Shown here one piece after another: positions 32,501 to 46,345 of a stretch of DNA of 64,000 nt; position 1 is the first letter of the stretch; each line of letters starts with the position of its first letter. The notes under the pieces were generated by a model. The model was not told where the DNA came from. It ran no database searches and saw only the letters and a list, made by a program, of their open reading frames with translations. The DNA comes from a virus: IMG/VR virus record IMGVR_UViG_3300030107_000800, positions 1 through 64,000 of that record; one strand, written 5' to 3'. A program made the translations under genes and the position numbers.

Positions 32501-33880
32501 ATCAGTAGATACTTGATCTAAAGAAGTTTCTACATTGGTATTTGTTGGTGCATCTACAGAATTACCTACCTGTCCTAATACCCACCTAGGCTGGTTTGTA
32601 CCAGTCTTAACAATTTTAGGATCAGTTGTCTCGAATCCTGGGTTAGAGACCTGTATCTGGTCTCCTACAGCAGAGTGTGGGTGTGAATCTTGTGGAGAAA
32701 GATTATAGACTACACCTAGAGTCAATAAAGATGCATTAGTACCTTCAATGATTACTGGTTTATAAACTGAAGTACCAGATGCATGTGTAGTAGGTACACT
32801 ACCTCTCTTTTCAATTATAAACTGTGTAGCGGTCTTATTATCAAATTTTATTTTCTCATCAGCAATAAGAATCTCACCAGTTGGTTCCCATCCAATAGTA
32901 GAGAAAACATCTATTCTCTTTCCTACACCATCTGTACTAGGAAGATTTCTCTCTAAACGAGTCTTAGTTGAGACTGCAAAGAATCCATTAACTGTCTCAG
33001 GAGCAAGTACAATATTCCATATTGATTCTCCATCAGCAGTATTATCTGGATAAACATTATCTACAGTAGCATCAGCATATCCATATTCATCAGTAACAGA
33101 CTGTACTATCTTCTTACCAATTAATAACTTAGGATCTCCTGATATAACTTTACATTTAAGAGCATAAACACTGATCCAATCAGCATTAGATACTTTATAT
33201 GTGTAATCTCTTGGTTTGTATACCTCTGGTTTTGTATCATTATTAACCAGAGTATTGAAAACAAATTCAATAGAACTATTAGTTCCTTTGGCCTTATAGA
33301 ATTTACTGATATTCTTAATCAGTGTTCTCTTATCAACTTCACCTTTAAGATACTTCTCAGGGAAAGAACCTAGATACTGACTCTCAAAATTTCTAACTAA
33401 GGCATATAGAAATAGATTACTTACATTATATACTGTCTCACCTGAATTATGAGGTGCAGCAGTGGTGCTAGAATAGGTTGAAGTATTGTATAGGTCACCA
33501 AGGGTAGTATTTCCACTAACGCCTCTTACACACTCTCTCAGCTCGGTATCAGTACGTGTACCATAGAATATAATTTCATCACCAATTCTTACGTAACCAT
33601 TTGCCTGTGGAAAACTCGACGCATCTTGTAGTACAATTGTATCAGCAGTAGCAGAAATATAAGCATCCAAGCTATCAAACTGTCTAAGAATATTTTGCTC
33701 ATAATAATCAATGTTGGAATAAGTTTGTAAATTGCTGGCAATATCTAAGGGGCCACCCTGAACTTCCTGACCTTCATAGTATTTCTGAACAAACTTGTGG
33801 AAAAGTGGGTATTCAGATACTATAAACTCAGGTAGTTGCGACTCAATAAGAGTGCTAATTCTTTTAGTCTTTACTGCCAT
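23570..33880 (-). CDS. gp7: Baseplate wedge initiator, gp7-like giant protein (3436 aa) with internal YHYH-like domain
   Basis: Lies between gp6 and gp8. Motifs LIESQLPEFI...FYKAKGT, DSNFYQDYSYVVKS...HPAGFKLFG and HSPIIGFAYDGNPIYG...LDQNNGRFC.TPDFPEGTYAYF. Confidence 0.8.
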   Translation of the reverse strand: MAVKTKRISTLIESQLPEFIVSEYPLFHKFVQKYYEGQEVQGGPLDIASNLQTYSNIDYYEQNILRQFDSLDAYISATADTIVLQDASSFPQANGYVRIGDEIIFYGTRTDTELRECVRGVSGNTTLGDLYNTSTYSSTTAAPHNSGETVYNVSNLFLYALVRNFESQYLGSFPEKYLKGEVDKRTLIKNISKFYKAKGTNSSIEFVFNTLVNNDTKPEVYKPRDYTYKVSNADWISVYALKCKVISGDPKLLIGKKIVQSVTDEYGYADATVDNVYPDNTADGESIWNIVLAPETVNGFFAVSTKTRLERNLPSTDGVGKRIDVFSTIGWEPTGEILIADEKIKFDNKTATQFIIEKRGSVPTTHASGTSVYKPVIIEGTNASLLTLGVVYNLSPQDSHPHSAVGDQIQVSNPGFETTDPKIVKTGTNQPRWVLGQVGNSVDAPTNTNVETSLDQVSTDVSALFEDEQYYYVSSSGFPSYKILDGPTISEPVQDQKLLRIIRKQATRTTEVYPTPKRDIGVLLNGVLAYGFKDEESIRYGKLEEIKVNTQGRGYASPPYVLVDGVRDKARAVLSGNVVESIIVDTTDTFPTTPEILITSGRRAEVRAIVTGAKVTSLVIDNAGEYYSSPPTVRIRDNAGRGRFAEYKALLTDGKITDFEKIDEGNFYNQNTVVVDIIPVGEGATGIPLLKEWNKNRFTKLSLDTDNGYVFQNFNNVFDYGYAHVGNPKSLRVALNDNLNGAGTEPATKTHSPIIGFAYDGNPIYGAFGYEDPLDATSSIIRMASSYSIVGQRTAGPDEGQWPLGSFTNDFVYNHKSGTLDQNNGRFCITPDFPEGTYAYFLTIDSNQIPQYPYIIGENFYSLPVDSNYNSNITQDDIPKDAKRLYTAGMPRNGEGVIATISEVKSGTVDSISVDRSSANFSVNSKVYFDNRGTEGSEAESIISSVKGKDVSYLQSKENKVVKLTTIQTAYLFANDTLRQPSSSAYGEIVGNVASDNVIVLKNVNGTFDNTGTFSADIKTFSLIIDQDSSYTEGAILSLTDGVNAPIATAEILEGTTQQNTLKIKVLTGTWIVDDTYFLQSSNLFNTSGSRIITLTSLSDNLEPFIVNQSVALIETASSHGLGIGDEVTVDIIPDDATKLKTWYVRKRLYQNIVLKAPSNKSTIDDTGIGRFQILNGGADYTANTYNNVPLTGGSGTGATASITVSNAGIVSNVTIQDSGSDYRKGDYLSVADESLVRSGGSLSSQRLTIYVDHVGFAAGQTSLKIKDVTGFCKNDLVKVGDEVLKVVSITTDSLNVDRGQEGTVDADHFNTQEVILYKPQYNFPSNYQIFTGAGTGYIQSYDPTTQQVGIIFDYAIEKSNAQDVTINSTFFDFSLPRRTVSISSIEPVEYKFEFSEDDSTYVPNINIDIQEYYKYRFDTSHSSLVGTYFDISPSKSYNLITVEKIASPVLPGNFGAYTDVKFGFGSRLATNNYDKKIGTDFANYYYFDKNGIVNSEGKYLKIVDDPLQGVRKVNYVTSNRFVYDLVGDPPLWDGSGTITYTTTGQFAIGEIDSFKIINLGLNYKKIPIIEGCDPNSEFKAKATVLFDTTTNTITGVNVSDKGSNYINPKIVITNGDGVDATFNVVVRDGSIFSITIDYPGVGYTFAPEIEIVESDLDAYVNSSSIGVPQSVSITKNGGAFHLDKTVASKFTSKSIFVLKNFNGTFKKGETLIQKIGGNEVARAVVSEWRSNLLKVENITGIFRQNNSIEGITSKATGTITSVFVTTFDKSITSFYDNLGYYKSDKGKLGVSNQKLIDSNFYQDYSYVVKSKTSIEQWRDLIKSTTHPAGFKLFGQVDIESDAAVPMPVSQPKDAHFTIVQLWDPEKNKITVESTKRIVTVTTQKVESQRIRKGSGSASNSEFNFNNTRAFTFTLNGAFDGTYNNDGQLIGTKSFQVLDQNGTPFTPVNAKSLIVTLDGVLQEPEKAYTVSGDNIVFAQPPLGPGTKAGSAYNGVTFYGRTFYFVDNQYNTKYLKKIRNIFERGGRWLDAANQVERNREFIVAEAVGYGKSKYASLDWSTKLDDYQRDIGYIIDGYEHDLRFGGNVKTYDYVNLFNQGSDYDYITSNKTESLDIFRYATNLVGLAIRNWDYQISVDYAIGSAEVTVGDTNNLAVGMYISAGRAFPANTKIVSIDTSTKITLSNNALLTSGTGVAAGISQLSGSQSGTAGTNTVQVPQGQTLQVPQGQTFAVAPATTGGEIATFTLSAVNNGQYVDASNLITSNKAYLQEEISEYIYATYTSLQTGDKAKCSRDIGLLIDAITYHLKFGGNEKIVDYARRYWTVSTYPGGQELTSLNRTSDERLAAIEAWDTLKDKITLTVRNNLPTGTYTAIAPVTDGSIAFDTNNPACVEVISSVDTMIESFKEIIVKGPGIIEVVKDNINKSGNWTTKLTYSNYNIIADSQLTAQECDNVISAVDSLYANVNTLINEVSTTRSLPDFIDGENKIFELYWDDSTAVDTEVDEDLFLTINAVLQRPKYTETYPGADAYYINRSVIPNQIIFDVAPICDQDLGAKTLGEVTAIEKVSGIGVANYKRLTIDYNLVDNVKSGPFLILDVEDMTVQTIEQKEFLYVFVDGILQREGYSYTVAGPNIYFNVPINSATKIDMRYLYGRNVGQVLNIYDFNPDSYYAKGVVTLETTAGADDLLRFRWMGDSIGLPVHAYQEVGGIKKIIGIASNFFRLNDMVRFTATGPKAEIDQTLPVVFAVGGKYNINTSVTLASSGSGVVYEADVDGRAVLSDLNSIWSGTLLGKNYRQPFIGISNLDKIRIEGEEGFRAIKKLPGSTTSKEQRAGEPVSTSHFGQVEVERYNGTTRGEGLSVVATIENGSVTKLEWNQRSYDPLTQPTAYQYETPPILHFIPKNGNGGGARATALVSKGQVISVDLLDGGSGYTEAPQVVVARRYDILAERDIGIVITQRIGVTKVDVSQTQTSSAHITILGTQVQNISTFTSTAFESPKSVTPDIEAEIQIDTDNIAEGQSGFDMPAGTEQPDNSQIVFIEPDPLVIESGGAAGSGAQPSIANVAIQDIVSLNSIQTVSKQITSSFTVDIDNTSLDNINYYQVGAYTNVDTDIADEVIYIPDTWKFSNSGYLLIGDEVVRYYRKLTDRFYMVQRGQEDTTAKFWAAGTFLRQVPERISVAPAGVAKIESTSETTTTDLILDVSISTNVLSEITITQSIASPGTTQTEVVLTPPASGAIDQYVEEAFINDPVPTRGIATSTVHTGSVDITDDYDVVQRGGGIVDVTNLVFGKTQDYIGDYIVTNVGNTLNHFDISGWDVGFTNVSGTTLQELDIHYPSLGIQDFEMRGLSAWTLAGQYWRIVNGSIQNPVAISQSTGTIGGPIVVAMTDNFPAAGYIFTSGGTVIQYTSKTATTFEGCTLFSGPDSINAGEDIIPFEPT
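27195..27238. repeat. 24-bp-period tandem duplication inside the gp7-like gene (QVPQGQTL-QVPQGQTF)
   Basis: aatgtttgtccttgtggaac at 27195-27214 and 27219-27238. Confidence 0.85.
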
Positions 33881-35676
33881 TACTCTTTATACGCAACGAA
33901 GCTGGAATTTGCAATGTCAACATCAAGATACATCTCTCGAAGTGCCTTGACATCATTAGATAGTGGTTTCACTCTAAGTGAAATACGATTGTCGAAGAAA
34001 CTACCTTTAATAATAGTTAAGTCGTATAACTTTAGTTCACCTTTGACATAATCAATATCACCAACTTCCTTGTCCAGGACAACCTTCTCACCAGTTGAGG
34101 AATCTATTCTATATAGGACAATCTTCTCATCTCTGTCTTCTAAGTAGACATCAAAAGTAGGATATTCTGTTACTCTAAATCCTGTTGATGAGAGAACAGG
34201 ATTATCACAATCCTTATCAAATGCATTCTGATAACAAACTTCATAGAAGAAAGTAGAATTTAATTGAGGATAGAAGTCTCTCCTCATAGTAACTGATGTT
34301 AAATTAGAATTAATACTCGAATCTGCCTCATCAATTACAGCAGTAAACTTACTATATCTAAATTTACCCTTAAATTTCTCTGTACCACTAGTATTAGTAT
34401 ATTGTTTTACTGCACCAATGGCCACATCTCGTATTTCAGCAGGAGGAGAATCTGTTTTTGACCCACTATAATAGATCTCACTGGTCAATTCTACGAATAA
34501 AACAGCAGGATCAACGATAACTGGTTCAACAGAAGCAACAACATACTTCTTTAACTCCTCAACAATCTGATTTTTAGTCAAAGATGTCAAATATGAAGCA
34601 TCAGTTGGCTTTAAAACAACAAAAACTTTACCATAATCAGGTGGATCTTGGTCTTCTCCACCAAAAATTATGATATCGCTAGTAGCAGGATAGATATTTC
34701 TTACGATTGCACCATAGTCTTCAGCAGTTACAGCACGATCTTGAGTACCAAATGTCTTAGGTGCATTAAATTTGATCTTTTCTGTGGTTTCTTGCTCTTC
34801 TCCACCAGCAGCAGGAATAGAATTATTGATTGTTACGTTATATGAATTAGGAGTAAGACCACTTCCATTAACTAAAACACCATTAAACACAAAAGATTTG
34901 ACTCCATTGGACTCAGAACCAGATGTTGTGATGTAAGTTACACGAATTTGAGCATTATTTTCTAATTTTTTACCTAAAACACCATCTCCAAATATCAATT
35001 CATACCTATCATCAGCAATTTCTTCTAAAAAGAAGACTTTTGATGTGCTATCTACACCTAAAATATTGTCTGCCCTCAGATATGGCTCGTTAAATGACCC
35101 TCCAGTAGGATAAACTTGGACTGATATTGTATTTGTATCAATATCTGGGTTGTTTAAAATGAATTTTTGTGATTTTTGTGCTGTCTGAACAGTAAATGTC
35201 TGTGATACTTGTGTTCCTTCTCTTAAAGGAACGTTAGTGAAGACGGCCTGATTGTTTGCAACTGCTGCTTTTACACCTTTTTCCACAACATATTGATAAA
35301 CATTGTTATCATAGGTAGTAAAAAACCCAGTTCCACCTTTTAAGTTTAATTCTGTATCGGTAGTAGGATTGCTATAGTCAACTGTAAAGTCAATATATGC
35401 AGTAGGAGATGTTTTTGACTTAGGTGTATATCCTAACTGCTTTGCAATTGCTACTACATTGTCTCTTAGAGACGCGGAATCAATGAATAATTCATTGACT
35501 ACCATGTTTGTATTGAACGCAGTATAGTACGTATTATAAGCAAGTACGTCTATTAAGTTCGATATAGCAGAACCTTCAAAATCATAGTCAGTAAAATCTG
35601 ACTGCGACTTTAAATAGTCCTTCAGCGTAGTTTTGATCTGTTCAAAATCTAAATTAGCAACTTGAGTATAAGGCAT
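33880..35676 (-). CDS. gp6: Baseplate wedge subunit, T4 gp6-like (598 aa)
   Basis: LDFEQIK..LKDYL..QSDFTDYDFEGS...LAYNTYY and QDRAVTAEDY motifs. Confidence 0.93.
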   Translation of the reverse strand: MPYTQVANLDFEQIKTTLKDYLKSQSDFTDYDFEGSAISNLIDVLAYNTYYTAFNTNMVVNELFIDSASLRDNVVAIAKQLGYTPKSKTSPTAYIDFTVDYSNPTTDTELNLKGGTGFFTTYDNNVYQYVVEKGVKAAVANNQAVFTNVPLREGTQVSQTFTVQTAQKSQKFILNNPDIDTNTISVQVYPTGGSFNEPYLRADNILGVDSTSKVFFLEEIADDRYELIFGDGVLGKKLENNAQIRVTYITTSGSESNGVKSFVFNGVLVNGSGLTPNSYNVTINNSIPAAGGEEQETTEKIKFNAPKTFGTQDRAVTAEDYGAIVRNIYPATSDIIIFGGEDQDPPDYGKVFVVLKPTDASYLTSLTKNQIVEELKKYVVASVEPVIVDPAVLFVELTSEIYYSGSKTDSPPAEIRDVAIGAVKQYTNTSGTEKFKGKFRYSKFTAVIDEADSSINSNLTSVTMRRDFYPQLNSTFFYEVCYQNAFDKDCDNPVLSSTGFRVTEYPTFDVYLEDRDEKIVLYRIDSSTGEKVVLDKEVGDIDYVKGELKLYDLTIIKGSFFDNRISLRVKPLSNDVKALREMYLDVDIANSSFVAYKE

Positions 35677-41668: not shown

Positions 41669-41773
41669 ATTATACAGACGAATTGTTGACAAACTCGAAA
41701 ATCGTTACACTATGCAACAAAAAAGTCCAGTTTGTCAACTGTCCGTGGCCTTGTGCCAATTTCTAACTGTCAC
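41669..41773 (-). promoter_or_regulatory. Early promoter, class A (-10 TATAAT, palindrome 50 nt from -10) plus a second upstream palindrome
   Basis: attata 41669-74, cgttacactatgcaaca 41703-19, CAGTT-tgtc-AACTG 41728-41, gtgccaatttctaactgtcac 41753-73. Confidence 0.82.
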
Positions 41774-41924
41774 CCCCATTTGTTTCTCTATAGTCTTTGA
41801 ATTTATTTACTTTCTTTTTACTTTGCCTCTTAACATTTTTGACTGTGTAACCAAAATCCTCGAAATCTTCATCAAATTGTTGATAATCAACATAAGAAGA
41901 TGACTTGATATTATGTGTAGTCAT
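41763..41924 (-). CDS. Small protein (53 aa, ...FDEDFEDFGYTVKNVKRQSKKKVNKFK...), acidic then basic
   Basis: Manual translation, GAGG SD-like motif and ATAAATA (41953-59) upstream. Confidence 0.7.
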   Translation of the reverse strand: MTTHNIKSSSYVDYQQFDEDFEDFGYTVKNVKRQSKKKVNKFKDYRETNGGDS

Positions 41925-41968
41925 AGGGGTGAATTACCTCGTTAATTAACATTATTTATTTTAAATTG

Positions 41969-42217
41969 TCATGCTTCAACATCAGTTAGTACACCAGATT
42001 TCCTGCTATTTGATATAAATCTGCCCAAACTTGCCTCTTTATTGTTTAATTCAACGCCAGTTAATACTTCACACAAATTATTACTGAAATCTGCTATATT
42101 TTCGCAATTATATACATATTCCTTGGCAATATTACTGTTATATGTAACAAATACCTGATTTTCCTTGGTTTCTATTGAATTAATTGCCGATGAGTCGAAT
42201 CTTGAATAAAATGTCAT
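41969..42217 (-). CDS. KTSC-like small protein (82 aa)
   Basis: SSAINSI....VFVTY.....YVY...SLGRFI pattern resembles KTSC domains. Confidence 0.55.
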   Translation of the reverse strand: MTFYSRFDSSAINSIETKENQVFVTYNSNIAKEYVYNCENIADFSNNLCEVLTGVELNNKEASLGRFISNSRKSGVLTDVEA

Positions 42218-42411
42218 TGTTTTTTAGTAATTTGTAGAATAAAGTGTTAAATAGGCACGCGAATAACGTTTTCCACAACCCTGTGAAAAACTTTATAACT
42301 TATAATTCTCAAAAGTCTTAAAAATTAATAAAAATGAGATTATAAGATTTTATAAAAAGTGAAAAACTCGCTTTTCTGAGTTTTTTGGATTTCCTCGAAT
42401 GTCATAAACCA

Positions 42412-42469
42412 ATTATAACGGATTTCCGAGTGTTTTGGAGACACCTTGTGCCACTTTGTGAACTGGACT
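42412..42469 (-). promoter_or_regulatory. Early promoter, class B (-10 TATAAT, palindrome 31 nt from -10)
   Basis: attata 42412-17, gtgccactttgtgaactggact 42448-69. Confidence 0.78.
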
Positions 42470-42496
42470 CGGAATGTTACAAAGTATTTCAGGGGG

Positions 42497-42525
42497 TTGA
42501 CATTTCGTTCGATAGGTGGTAGCCT
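42497..42525 (+). promoter_or_regulatory. Plus-strand sigma70-type promoter TTGACA-N17-TAGCCT with TGn extension, no convincing downstream ORF
   Basis: ttgaca 42497-502, tagcct 42520-25. Confidence 0.55.
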
Positions 42526-42676
42526 TAGACACCTTCGTGAGCGTCACATAGTTCACACATACTATATTTAATTAACCATTTATAAAGTTTTCCACAACAA
42601 CCTCCTAAACCTGTGGAAAACCCAGTGATAGCAATGTGCGGATGGTTACTCAAGGATAGTATCCTGAGAACATTTC

Positions 42677-42868
42677 TCAATAGTCTGTATCAACCTCCTT
42701 GAAACACATTTCGATGATAGTTTGTCTATCTAATTTGTCACCATGTGATGCCATTAGTCTGTGGAAAACTACATCTAATTCTTTATACTGACCATAACTT
42801 ATGTCAGTCCATGCTCTAGGAAATAGTTCTTGTTGTGATGCCATTTCTTTTGTTGTTAATGTGAGCAT
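42677..42868 (-). CDS. Small early protein (63 aa)
   Basis: ORF track, TAATG coupling. Confidence 0.65.
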   Translation of the reverse strand: MLTLTTKEMASQQELFPRAWTDISYGQYKELDVVFHRLMASHGDKLDRQTIIEMCFKEVDTDY

Positions 42869-43044
42869 TAGTATGCTGCCCTTAGTAGTGAGTACATTTT
42901 GTCACGAACTTGATGAGTGTCCTCTTCTGCTCCCTCGTATGGTTGTGATTGAGCATAGCAGTCAAGTGCCTGATCTATCACATCCCATTGTGCTTGAGTG
43001 AAGAAATCATACATCAAGTTGAGTTCTTTGTGAGAATAGTTCAT
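42868..43044 (-). CDS. Small early protein (58 aa, MNYSHKELNLMYDFFT...)
   Basis: Manual translation, TAATG coupling at both ends. Confidence 0.7.
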   Translation of the reverse strand: MNYSHKELNLMYDFFTQAQWDVIDQALDCYAQSQPYEGAEEDTHQVRDKMYSLLRAAY

Positions 43045-43304
43045 TAGTGCTTTAACTGACCATTATCATCATACCACTCATCAGTGACATTTTCCAACTC
43101 TACACCAGTATTGAAACATCCTGTAACATTATTATTGTTTAGGATGTGGATAAACTCATTGTATTCTTGTGTAGTGTATGCTCTCTTGTCACTAGGGTGG
43201 AAGTCTTGCCAGTCAGTTCCTTCTATTTTATATGATAGTGTGTTATCATTGTTATGATAGTATTCTATTTCAGTACCATCATGTGATACAAATACATTAC
43301 GCAT
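43044..43304 (-). CDS. Acidic early protein (probable start 43304)
   Basis: ORF track, GGAGG upstream. Confidence 0.7.
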   Translation of the reverse strand: MRNVFVSHDGTEIEYYHNNDNTLSYKIEGTDWQDFHPSDKRAYTTQEYNEFIHILNNNNVTGCFNTGVELENVTDEWYDDNGQLKH

Positions 43305-44980: not shown

Positions 44981-45038
44981 ATAATAACAGACCATGAGAG
45001 ATTATCCCATGGCCTTGTGACACTAATCTAACTGGTTG
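44981..45038 (-). promoter_or_regulatory. Early promoter, class B (-10 TATTAT, palindrome 31 nt from -10)
   Basis: ataata 44981-86, gtgacactaatctaactggttg 45017-38. Confidence 0.8.
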
Positions 45039-45266
45039 TTACTTGCGTGTGTTTTCCACATCATACTCTATGATGATCTTCTTAGATGCTCTACCAACAC
45101 TATTAAGTGTCTCAATACGCTCTACACTTCCGTTTAGACACGCTGCTATCTGAAGTATTTCAGATATTAGTTCACCTCTATCCATATACATGAACTGATC
45201 CTCCTGTAGGCGACTACAAGAGATCTCAGTGTCATCCTCGTAACACTTCACATCATTATTGTTCAT
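45039..45266 (-). CDS. Hypothetical protein (probable start 45266)
   Basis: AAGGAG SD, C-terminal KKIIIEYDV. Confidence 0.7.
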   Translation of the reverse strand: MNNNDVKCYEDDTEISCSRLQEDQFMYMDRGELISEILQIAACLNGSVERIETLNSVGRASKKIIIEYDVENTRK

Positions 45267-45987: not shown

Positions 45988-46190
45988 TTCTTTTTAATAT
46001 AATGGTTAATTACTTCTATTTGGTCATGCCATCGAGCGATCTTGTCTATTTCCTGTTGCATTGCTTCAGTAATATCAGGATGCTCACCTATACCAACAGG
46101 ATTATTTAGATATACTTCAATATTGGCAAGGTGCATCTGGATTTCACCATTTGCATGTGCTAGTAGTGCCTTGATTAGTTGTTCTCTCAT
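45984..46190 (-). CDS. Conserved T4-like small protein (probable start 46190; ANIEVYLNNPVGIGEHPDI)
   Basis: GIGEH motif. The longer ORF-track start crosses a divergent promoter region. Confidence 0.78.
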   Translation of the reverse strand: MREQLIKALLAHANGEIQMHLANIEVYLNNPVGIGEHPDITEAMQQEIDKIARWHDQIEVINHYIKKK

Positions 46191-46255
46191 AGTTACAAAT
46201 GATACAATTAAAAATATATAGGTATAAATTTTTGTGTCTATTTCAACACTCTTTA

Positions 46256-46263
46256 TATAAATA
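46256..46263 (+). promoter_or_regulatory. Perfect T4 late promoter TATAAATA on the plus strand
   Basis: ~80 nt upstream of ATG 46346. Confidence 0.75.
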
Positions 46264-46345
46264 ATAGTAGAATTGAGGAAGAGCAAGATGTACCCAAAAC
46301 ACATACATTATGCTGTCCACCGAATACAATTAATGGTTTAATCTC

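Follow-up and report, generated by a model that had tools for sequence, protein, structure and literature searches.

T4-like cyanophages kill a large share of the Synechococcus and Prochlorococcus in the ocean, and where their replication starts and how they read host physiology at the level of DNA are questions on which the locus described here bears. The locus lies in IMG/VR virus record IMGVR_UViG_3300030107_000800, a 78.5-kb fragment that is ~40% complete, of which we analyzed positions 1 to 64,000 (64,000 nucleotides (nt), hereafter the window). All long open reading frames (ORFs) of the window are on the minus strand, and an earlier reading by a model that saw only the letters and the ORFs (the sequence-only reading) had singled out 42218-42676 as its largest gene-free gap, which agrees with our own check: it is the longest internal stretch without a minus-strand ORF. 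The gap contains facing copies of the cyanobacterial DnaA box and was proposed to mimic a host replication origin (oriC). Why should such a phage carry host DnaA boxes? Selected boxes in a single-copy, promoter-bearing and AT-rich cassette are unexpected, because T4 itself ignores DnaA. We found that the gap is one copy of a control cassette shared across the phage family, and that the boxes in it are selected yet optional.

The published cyanobacterial DnaA box, TTTTCCACA (PMC4674748), occurs eight times on the two strands of the window, compared to 0.79 expected from dinucleotide shuffles and 0.4-0.75 from Markov models of order 2-5. Exact copies are located at 42269(+), 42588(+), 42612(-) and 42760(-), and elsewhere at 33606, 33796, 35279 and 45052, so that four further copies exist where the sequence-only reading had counted two. 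One-mismatch copies occur at chance level (23 observed versus 25 expected), and the near-copy TTATCCACA at 43145(-), which had been cited in support of the cluster, therefore carries no weight. Three exact boxes and one with a single mismatch (TTTTTCACA at 42282(-)) fall within a 354-bp part of the gap as two facing pairs, a DnaA-box cluster of the kind expected of an oriC and fitting the consensus TTWTNCACA. Box positions and facing arrangement were as claimed, although the arms are really 10-mers.

Pair A (42587-42621, both strands) reads GTTTTCCACA-N15-TGTGGAAAAC, with exact 9-mers at 42588-42596 on the plus strand and 42612-42620 on the minus strand. Pair B (42268-42291, both strands) reads GTTTTCCACA-ACCC-TGTGAAAAAC, an N4 arrangement in which the exact box at 42269-42277 faces the minus-strand box TTTTTCACA at 42282-42290. 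It adjoins an AT tract within the transcribed leader, ~50 nt upstream of an 82-aa gene. Relatives keep an N3-N5 pair either at this place or directly after the promoter, and the TTTTTCACA variant also occurs in two other loci (L084 and L096). Between the boxes of pair B, the plus strand reads ACCC (42278-42281) here and in the close relative L001, and the reverse complement of these 4 nt in L002, whose neighboring gene product is 98% identical; this is a flip of the loop between inverted boxes. The fourth exact box of the locus (42760-42768, minus strand) lies within a 63-aa ORF at 42677-42868 and is absent from the closest relatives; it is specific to this lineage, since L001 and L002 read TTTTCAACA there.

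Comparisons across phages and bacteria showed that selection acts on the 9-mers as sequence-specific sites, and that bacterial and cyanobacterial origins are marked by sites of this kind. Homologous cassettes contain 3.7 boxes per kb compared to 0.105 per kb in flanking phage DNA. Genomes carry 4-9 exact boxes (4-6 in most phages), of which four of six are located at the cassette in P-SSM7, four of six in S-RIM50 and six of six in a third genome (G004). In a 684-column alignment of eight non-redundant, diverged cassettes, the longest invariant runs were the pair A boxes themselves (TTTTCCACAG and TTGTGGAAAA, 10 columns each), with the 14-15-nt loop between them varying freely. Scanning IMG/VR for facing 10-mers returned >120 loci, nearly all with cyanophage-like G+C, in which the spacing of inverted pairs peaks at N4, N14-15 and N25-27, approximately one helical turn apart. 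Searched in bacterial genomes, the same 10-mer pairs were found next to ORFs of the DnaA (39 of 120 loci), DnaN (34), YidC (23) and RecF (17) families.

The tandem TGTGGAAAA-ACC-TGTGGAAAA, present in several phage cassettes, also occurs in 28 of 301 Cyanobacteriota genomes (0 for the reversed control), and the six loci examined all have it between dnaA and dnaN, in a spacer with 5-7 exact boxes. The small 'Cyanobacteriota' genomes sampled for host oriC belong to non-photosynthetic lineages and not to marine Synechococcus or Prochlorococcus, as judged from the lack of psbA and the presence of TTTTCTACA arrays upstream of dnaN. In four of these genomes (L390, L391, L393 and L394, of the GTDB phylum Cyanobacteriota) such arrays replace TTTTCCACA, apparently as a form of the DnaA box that is specific to their lineage. 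As for the phages, neither this contig nor any of three complete box-carrying genomes encodes a DnaA domain IV. Enrichment, invariance and the dnaA/dnaN neighborhoods in bacteria together uphold the original identification of the 9-mers as cyanobacterial-type DnaA boxes. The densest array seen was in another IMG/VR record (IMGVR_UViG_3300017917_003154, L043:370-720), with eight exact boxes in ~350 nt around a TTGACA-N17-TACAAT promoter.

To which phages does the gap belong? The 598-aa product of 33880-35676 is 71-76% identical to the baseplate wedge protein gp6 of Synechococcus phages S-B43, S-WAM2, S-RSM4 and the ACG-2014 series, which places the window in a T4-like cyanomyophage (Kyanoviridae). 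The gap is surrounded by small early genes and lies ~6 kb upstream of gp25/gp6. Because positions 41900-43100 had no blastn match in the phage collection, synteny was reached through the protein of the first downstream gene (41969-42217, minus strand; 82 aa, phrog_4357, function unknown). This gene had been described as KTSC-like, but its product had no Pfam match above the cut-off, KTSC included. Scans of the whole window against Rfam and for transfer RNAs returned nothing.

The gap represents a control cassette, present in a single copy, that Kyanoviridae have in common. Six IMG/VR contigs have homologous gaps, and so do the isolates S-RSM4, S-WAM2, S-MbCM7, S-B43 and S-CAM4. Block-wise alignment revealed a shared order on the gene strand: TCCGCRC, a 12-nt segment, an operator slot of ~35 bp (occupied here by pair A), an AT block of the AAATGGTTAAWWAAATATAG type, a CTTAGC...GTCAA block that reads TTGAC-N17-TA on the opposite strand, an early promoter, an A/T-tract leader of ~110 nt and the gene. 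A profile of the cassette recovered 53 non-redundant copies among the loci fetched, including P-SSM7 (L012, 100% identity) and S-RIM50, with exactly one match each in P-SSM7, S-RIM50 and this contig.

In this window, the upstream border of the slot spans 42622-42642 on the minus strand according to the alignment, with the conserved TCCGCAC (GTGCGGA on the plus strand, 42636-42642) followed by the 12-nt segment. The segment itself (42622-42635) is reverse-complemented among lineages, as seen against S-RSM4 and others (TTGCTATCACT versus AGTGATAGCAA; TTGGTATGACTG versus CAGTCATACCAA), and no pairing partner was found for it. Two other candidate structures were discarded: a long-range TCCGCAC/GTGCGG helix around the slot, complementary in only part of the lineages, and a 21-nt inverted repeat (42559-42579/42642-42662), absent by eye from L003-L005.

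Are the boxes an indispensable part of this cassette, as those of an oriC should be? Across whole genomes of ~190 kb, exact boxes number zero in S-RSM4, S-WAM2 and S-B43, one in S-MbCM7 and two in S-CAM4, and none of them is in the cassette. Among 20 non-redundant cassettes found via the conserved block alone, and hence blind to the boxes, ten have at least two exact boxes, one has a single box and nine have none. Positional conservation, put forward earlier as a check, is therefore split: boxes are kept and invariant in part of the relatives and absent from the five isolates and 9 of 20 cassettes. Where boxes are present in the box-blind sample, their arrangement differs, with two or three direct boxes separated by 3-bp gaps, two direct boxes in reverse, mixed arrays, and TGTGGATAA or TTTTTCACA variants. 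Direct arrays at the homologous position cannot pair, yet they retain TTWTNCACA, and the variants TTATCCACA and TTTTTCACA break pairing in relatives but stay within the consensus. RNA hairpins are unlikely, given the two or three direct boxes that relatives carry at the position of pair A.

In other lineages the slot is occupied by a different motif. S-RSM4, S-WAM2, S-B43, S-MbCM7 and seven IMG/VR cassettes have a slot of the same length in which GGTTCTCAATAAG faces ATTGA(G/T)AATCAAT, with a third copy ~45 nt upstream of the pair, all at fixed positions (L127:2080-2230 for S-RSM4, L128, L129, L130, L260, L264, L266, L302, L344, L345 and L350). The background of the corresponding 8-mer is 0.087 per kb. 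This replacement is a 6-1-6 palindrome, ATTGA(T/G)-A-ATCAAT, close to the center of the E. coli Fur box. The S-RSM4-type motif contains the core TTCTCAATAA of the consensus AAATAAATTCTCAATAAAT for the box of cyanobacterial Fur (FurA of Anabaena; PMC4005646) and is a predicted site by sequence. As the motif is absent from the cassette of this window, it bears on the reading of the slot and not on this phage directly.

A second facing Fur-type pair was seen in S-RSM4 (NC_013085.1 137911-137940, ~L127:4496-4525), in an intergenic gap 2.3 kb downstream of the cassette. A search of five genomes with a degenerate Fur-type pattern was too unspecific to be informative. In L284 and L343 the slot instead has GTA-N8-TAC, an NtcA-type box; these represent one lineage, the match is perhaps due to chance and its distance to the nearest -10 is non-canonical.

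The sequence-only reading had named changes that keep base-pairing but not the 9-mer as favoring RNA hairpins. A different inverted repeat at the same place does exist in form, but the replacement is a fixed motif of protein-binding type in three copies. Together with the direct repeats formed by DnaA boxes elsewhere, this argues for swappable protein sites over hairpins. A DnaA-driven origin should not be able to lose or trade its boxes, whereas a control point wired to host regulators can. Since sister phages run the same cassette without boxes or with Fur-type sites in the slot, we infer that the DnaA input is accessory: an optional add-on through which the phage may sense its host, and no replica of the host origin.

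What could such an input control? The A/T-tract leader (42292-42400, minus strand) lies between the early promoter P2 and pair B and is a candidate unwinding element. As previously claimed, a very AT-rich tract adjoins the first box pair, as is typical of an oriC: 42287-42386 is ~82% A+T, more than any other 100 bp of the 78.5-kb contig, and the tract is the second least stable 100-bp stretch of the 64 kb (dG of -107 versus a mean of -124, standard deviation 5.8). The least stable 100 bp of the window is 46174-46273 (dG of -105.9). A/T-tract leaders are kept in relatives.

P2 (42412-42469, minus strand) has the -10 element TATAAT at 42417-42412, which is kept in all relatives, and the upstream element CCAGTT-N6-AGTGGCACAAGG at 42466-42444. 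Because this element recurs with the same spacing at five other promoters of the window (43725, 45017, 48600, 50084 and 52266), P2 is probably an ordinary early promoter of this phage that a consensus promoter scan missed owing to its poor -35. Eleven early promoters with CCAGTT-N6-7-AGTG(G/T)CAC were counted on the minus strand between 38586 and 52266. They fall into two spacing classes that are apart in space, with class A at 42448 and above and class B, which has a longer spacer and a TTACA-type insert, at 41724 and below. The switch of promoter class proposed for this locus is therefore real.

The most widely conserved block of the cassette (42496-42530, plus strand; CTAAG...ATCGAA...GTCAAC on the minus strand) is a candidate backward promoter, TTGACA-N17-TAGCCT, of which TTGAC-N17-TA(A/G) is retained in P-SSM7, S-RIM50, S-RSM4 and the IMG/VR relatives. 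Neither this promoter nor P2, the pair claimed earlier, was called by the consensus scan; the minus-strand member stands by virtue of its promoter family, and the plus-strand member only through conservation of TTGAC-N17-TA. Directly downstream of the slot, the conserved AT block (42558-42586, minus strand), present in all cassette classes, possibly holds a second gene-strand promoter, P1, with a -10 of TATAGT at 42566-42561.

Transcription was assessed from metatranscriptome contigs, for which neither strand nor true ends can be read and for which uncovered parts constitute no evidence. In two studies, contigs break off at 42394/42395, which is 10-14 nt downstream of where the P2 -10 would place the transcript start; depth is higher toward the gene, and the AT leader and pair B are both covered. 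One contig runs from 42391 to 42554. The boundary is a weak hint, given the lack of strand and true ends and the origin of one upstream contig from a variant strain.

Based on these observations, we favor, with slightly more confidence than doubt, a model in which host DnaA docks at the swappable slot and tunes transcription of the cassette, which may in turn prime replication. DnaA would bind the boxes as monomers on double-stranded DNA and modulate the firing or passage of the cassette promoters. Boxes recur at three positions: in the slot, shortly after the P2 start and where the leader ends. Pair A would be centered near -38 and -62 of the putative P1 and, on the backward transcript, would lie downstream of its promoter at ~+60 to +95; pair B would lie downstream of P2 in the geometry of the DnaA boxes at lambda pR/pO. 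Early transcription through the AT-rich leader would thereby be tied to the DnaA state of the host, and this transcription may prime phage replication via an R-loop, as at T4 oriF/oriG.

Several points weigh against this model. Five exact boxes within coding DNA are left unexplained, P1 and the backward promoter are weak by consensus, and the RNA contigs have neither strand nor true ends, with one at the break coming from a slightly different strain; a phage protein other than DnaA could also read the same 9-mer. Among the boxes away from the gap, the one at 45052-45060 (plus strand) precedes the class A early-promoter element at 45017 by 15 nt, lies where an ORF has its 3' end and may be a further DnaA input. 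Those at 33606 and 33796 (in a 3436-aa gp7-like ORF) and 35279 (in gp6) are inside baseplate genes, where they are still above the whole-window expectation.

The proposal from which the locus was first described, an oriC mimic at which DnaA oligomers would melt the AT tract and start theta replication, has clear attractions: the boxes flank some of the least stable DNA of the contig, the cassette is single-copy, the box arrays resemble cyanobacterial oriC layouts and, for Syn9, only a predicted single theta origin is on record (as reported in the review PMC2984593). We nonetheless consider it unlikely. Five isolates and 9 of 20 box-blind samples have the cassette without the boxes, other lineages have Fur-type sites in the slot, the cassette of this phage has just four boxes, no clear DnaA-trio or GC-cluster was seen by eye beside them, and T4-like phages load their own helicase without DnaA (PMC3016281). 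Cumulative GC skew showed no origin signature or inflection at the locus, being monotonic through it in this contig, P-SSM7 and S-RIM50; this is a weak test, and GC/AT skew is in effect uninformative, because the genes are all on one strand. The other function suggested for the boxes, a datA-like sink that titrates host DnaA as phage copies rise and so stops host initiation, would profit from perfect, high-affinity boxes multiplied by phage copy number, with up to eight exact boxes in ~350 nt in some relatives (L043). It fits poorly with the 4-6 boxes per genome of most phages, with their optional presence among close relatives and with a placement that is fixed relative to promoters, which titration alone does not require, and we rate it as improbable.

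That the inverted repeats act instead as RNA or DNA hairpins (a leader stabilizer, terminator or processing site), with the likeness to DnaA boxes coincidental, seems very improbable, even though both pairs can fold (pair B, in the sense leader, as a perfect stem that includes one G-U), folding of the gap is stronger than that of shuffled sequence (z = -3.4) and S-RSM4-type phages have another inverted repeat where pair A would be. In the eight-cassette alignment the arms do not vary and show no compensatory changes, direct tandem boxes unable to pair stand at homologous positions, TTATCCACA-like variants lose pairing and keep the box consensus, loop lengths step by one helical turn, and the third copy of the replacement motif is outside any hairpin. 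Nor was there compensatory pairing or a T-run after a stem, an Rfam match or any terminator-like site called in the gap by the scan. A last alternative retains a protein at the 9-mers but makes it a phage early protein that shares the specificity of DnaA or competes with it. The cassette lies among dozens of small early genes of unknown function, and operator motifs differ by lineage as if reader and site co-varied; however, the sites match the host motif down to the flanks (G before, AG/ACC after) and the oriC tandem spacing, the phage encodes no DnaA-like helix-turn-helix, and the alternative slot motif is likewise a host-type (Fur) box. We regard this reader as improbable, and prefer host DnaA as an accessory regulator of cassette transcription.

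One extension of the DnaA-tuned model is more speculative: the cassette may be the R-loop origin of Kyanoviridae, gated via the slot by DnaA in this phage, by Fur in S-RSM4-type phages and possibly by NtcA elsewhere. We hold this to be doubtful, but if true, ocean cyanophages would couple the start of genome copying to the replication, iron or nitrogen status of the host. The Fur-type sites in the slot of other lineages also suggest a general scheme, with a single control point of the phage rewired to one host regulator or another. In the literature searched, we found no paper that connects DnaA boxes with cyanophages or T4-like phages. The cassette thus provides a concrete 400-bp target for origin mapping and DnaA binding tests in the culturable phages P-SSM7 and S-RIM50.

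Finally, we compared the cassette to known systems. Host DnaA boxes in phage and plasmid control regions are already known, from lambda and from P1 and iteron plasmids, whose control regions contain them. E. coli datA, a locus for DnaA titration and DnaA-ATP hydrolysis that needs IHF and acts in cis to the host cycle, resembles the cassette as a strong DnaA-box cluster outside an origin, but box numbers in the phages are low. With cyanobacterial oriC (PMC4674748), the phage cassettes have in common the identical 9-mer, the ACC-linked tandem and the facing pairs. In the host origins examined, 170-320 bp of dnaA-dnaN spacer hold 5-7 boxes, whereas the phage cassette has two plus two boxes over 350 bp around promoters, and these are dispensable among relatives.

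Closer parallels are found in phages. Like the cassette, T4 oriF and oriG are short elements between or within genes of a T4-like genome, in which a promoter with a sigma70-type -10 fires into ~100 bp of AT-rich, easily melted DNA; the cassette has such a -10 (TATAAT, 42417-42412) and RNA contigs over the leader. A promoter and an unwinding element are all that minimal oriF/oriG comprise (PMC3016281), and the equivalent layout makes it reasonable to consider the cassette as a candidate for the as yet unmapped origin of cyanophages, where DnaA would be an accessory gate. The promoters of oriF/oriG are MotA-dependent middle promoters, whereas P2 is of the early class; cyanomyoviruses lack motA and asiA (PMC2984593), and T4 oriE also has an early promoter (PMC3016281). 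T4 further differs in having several origins and no DnaA boxes. Lambda, which has its own initiator O and iterons and is unrelated to the present phage, as is its host, likewise has host DnaA boxes next to and downstream of phage promoters: those downstream of pO/pR have been footprinted, and DnaA stimulates the transcription that activates ori-lambda (PMC3985674). There DnaA is a modulator of transcription coupled to the start of replication and not a melter of DNA, which is the role that we propose for it at the cassette.

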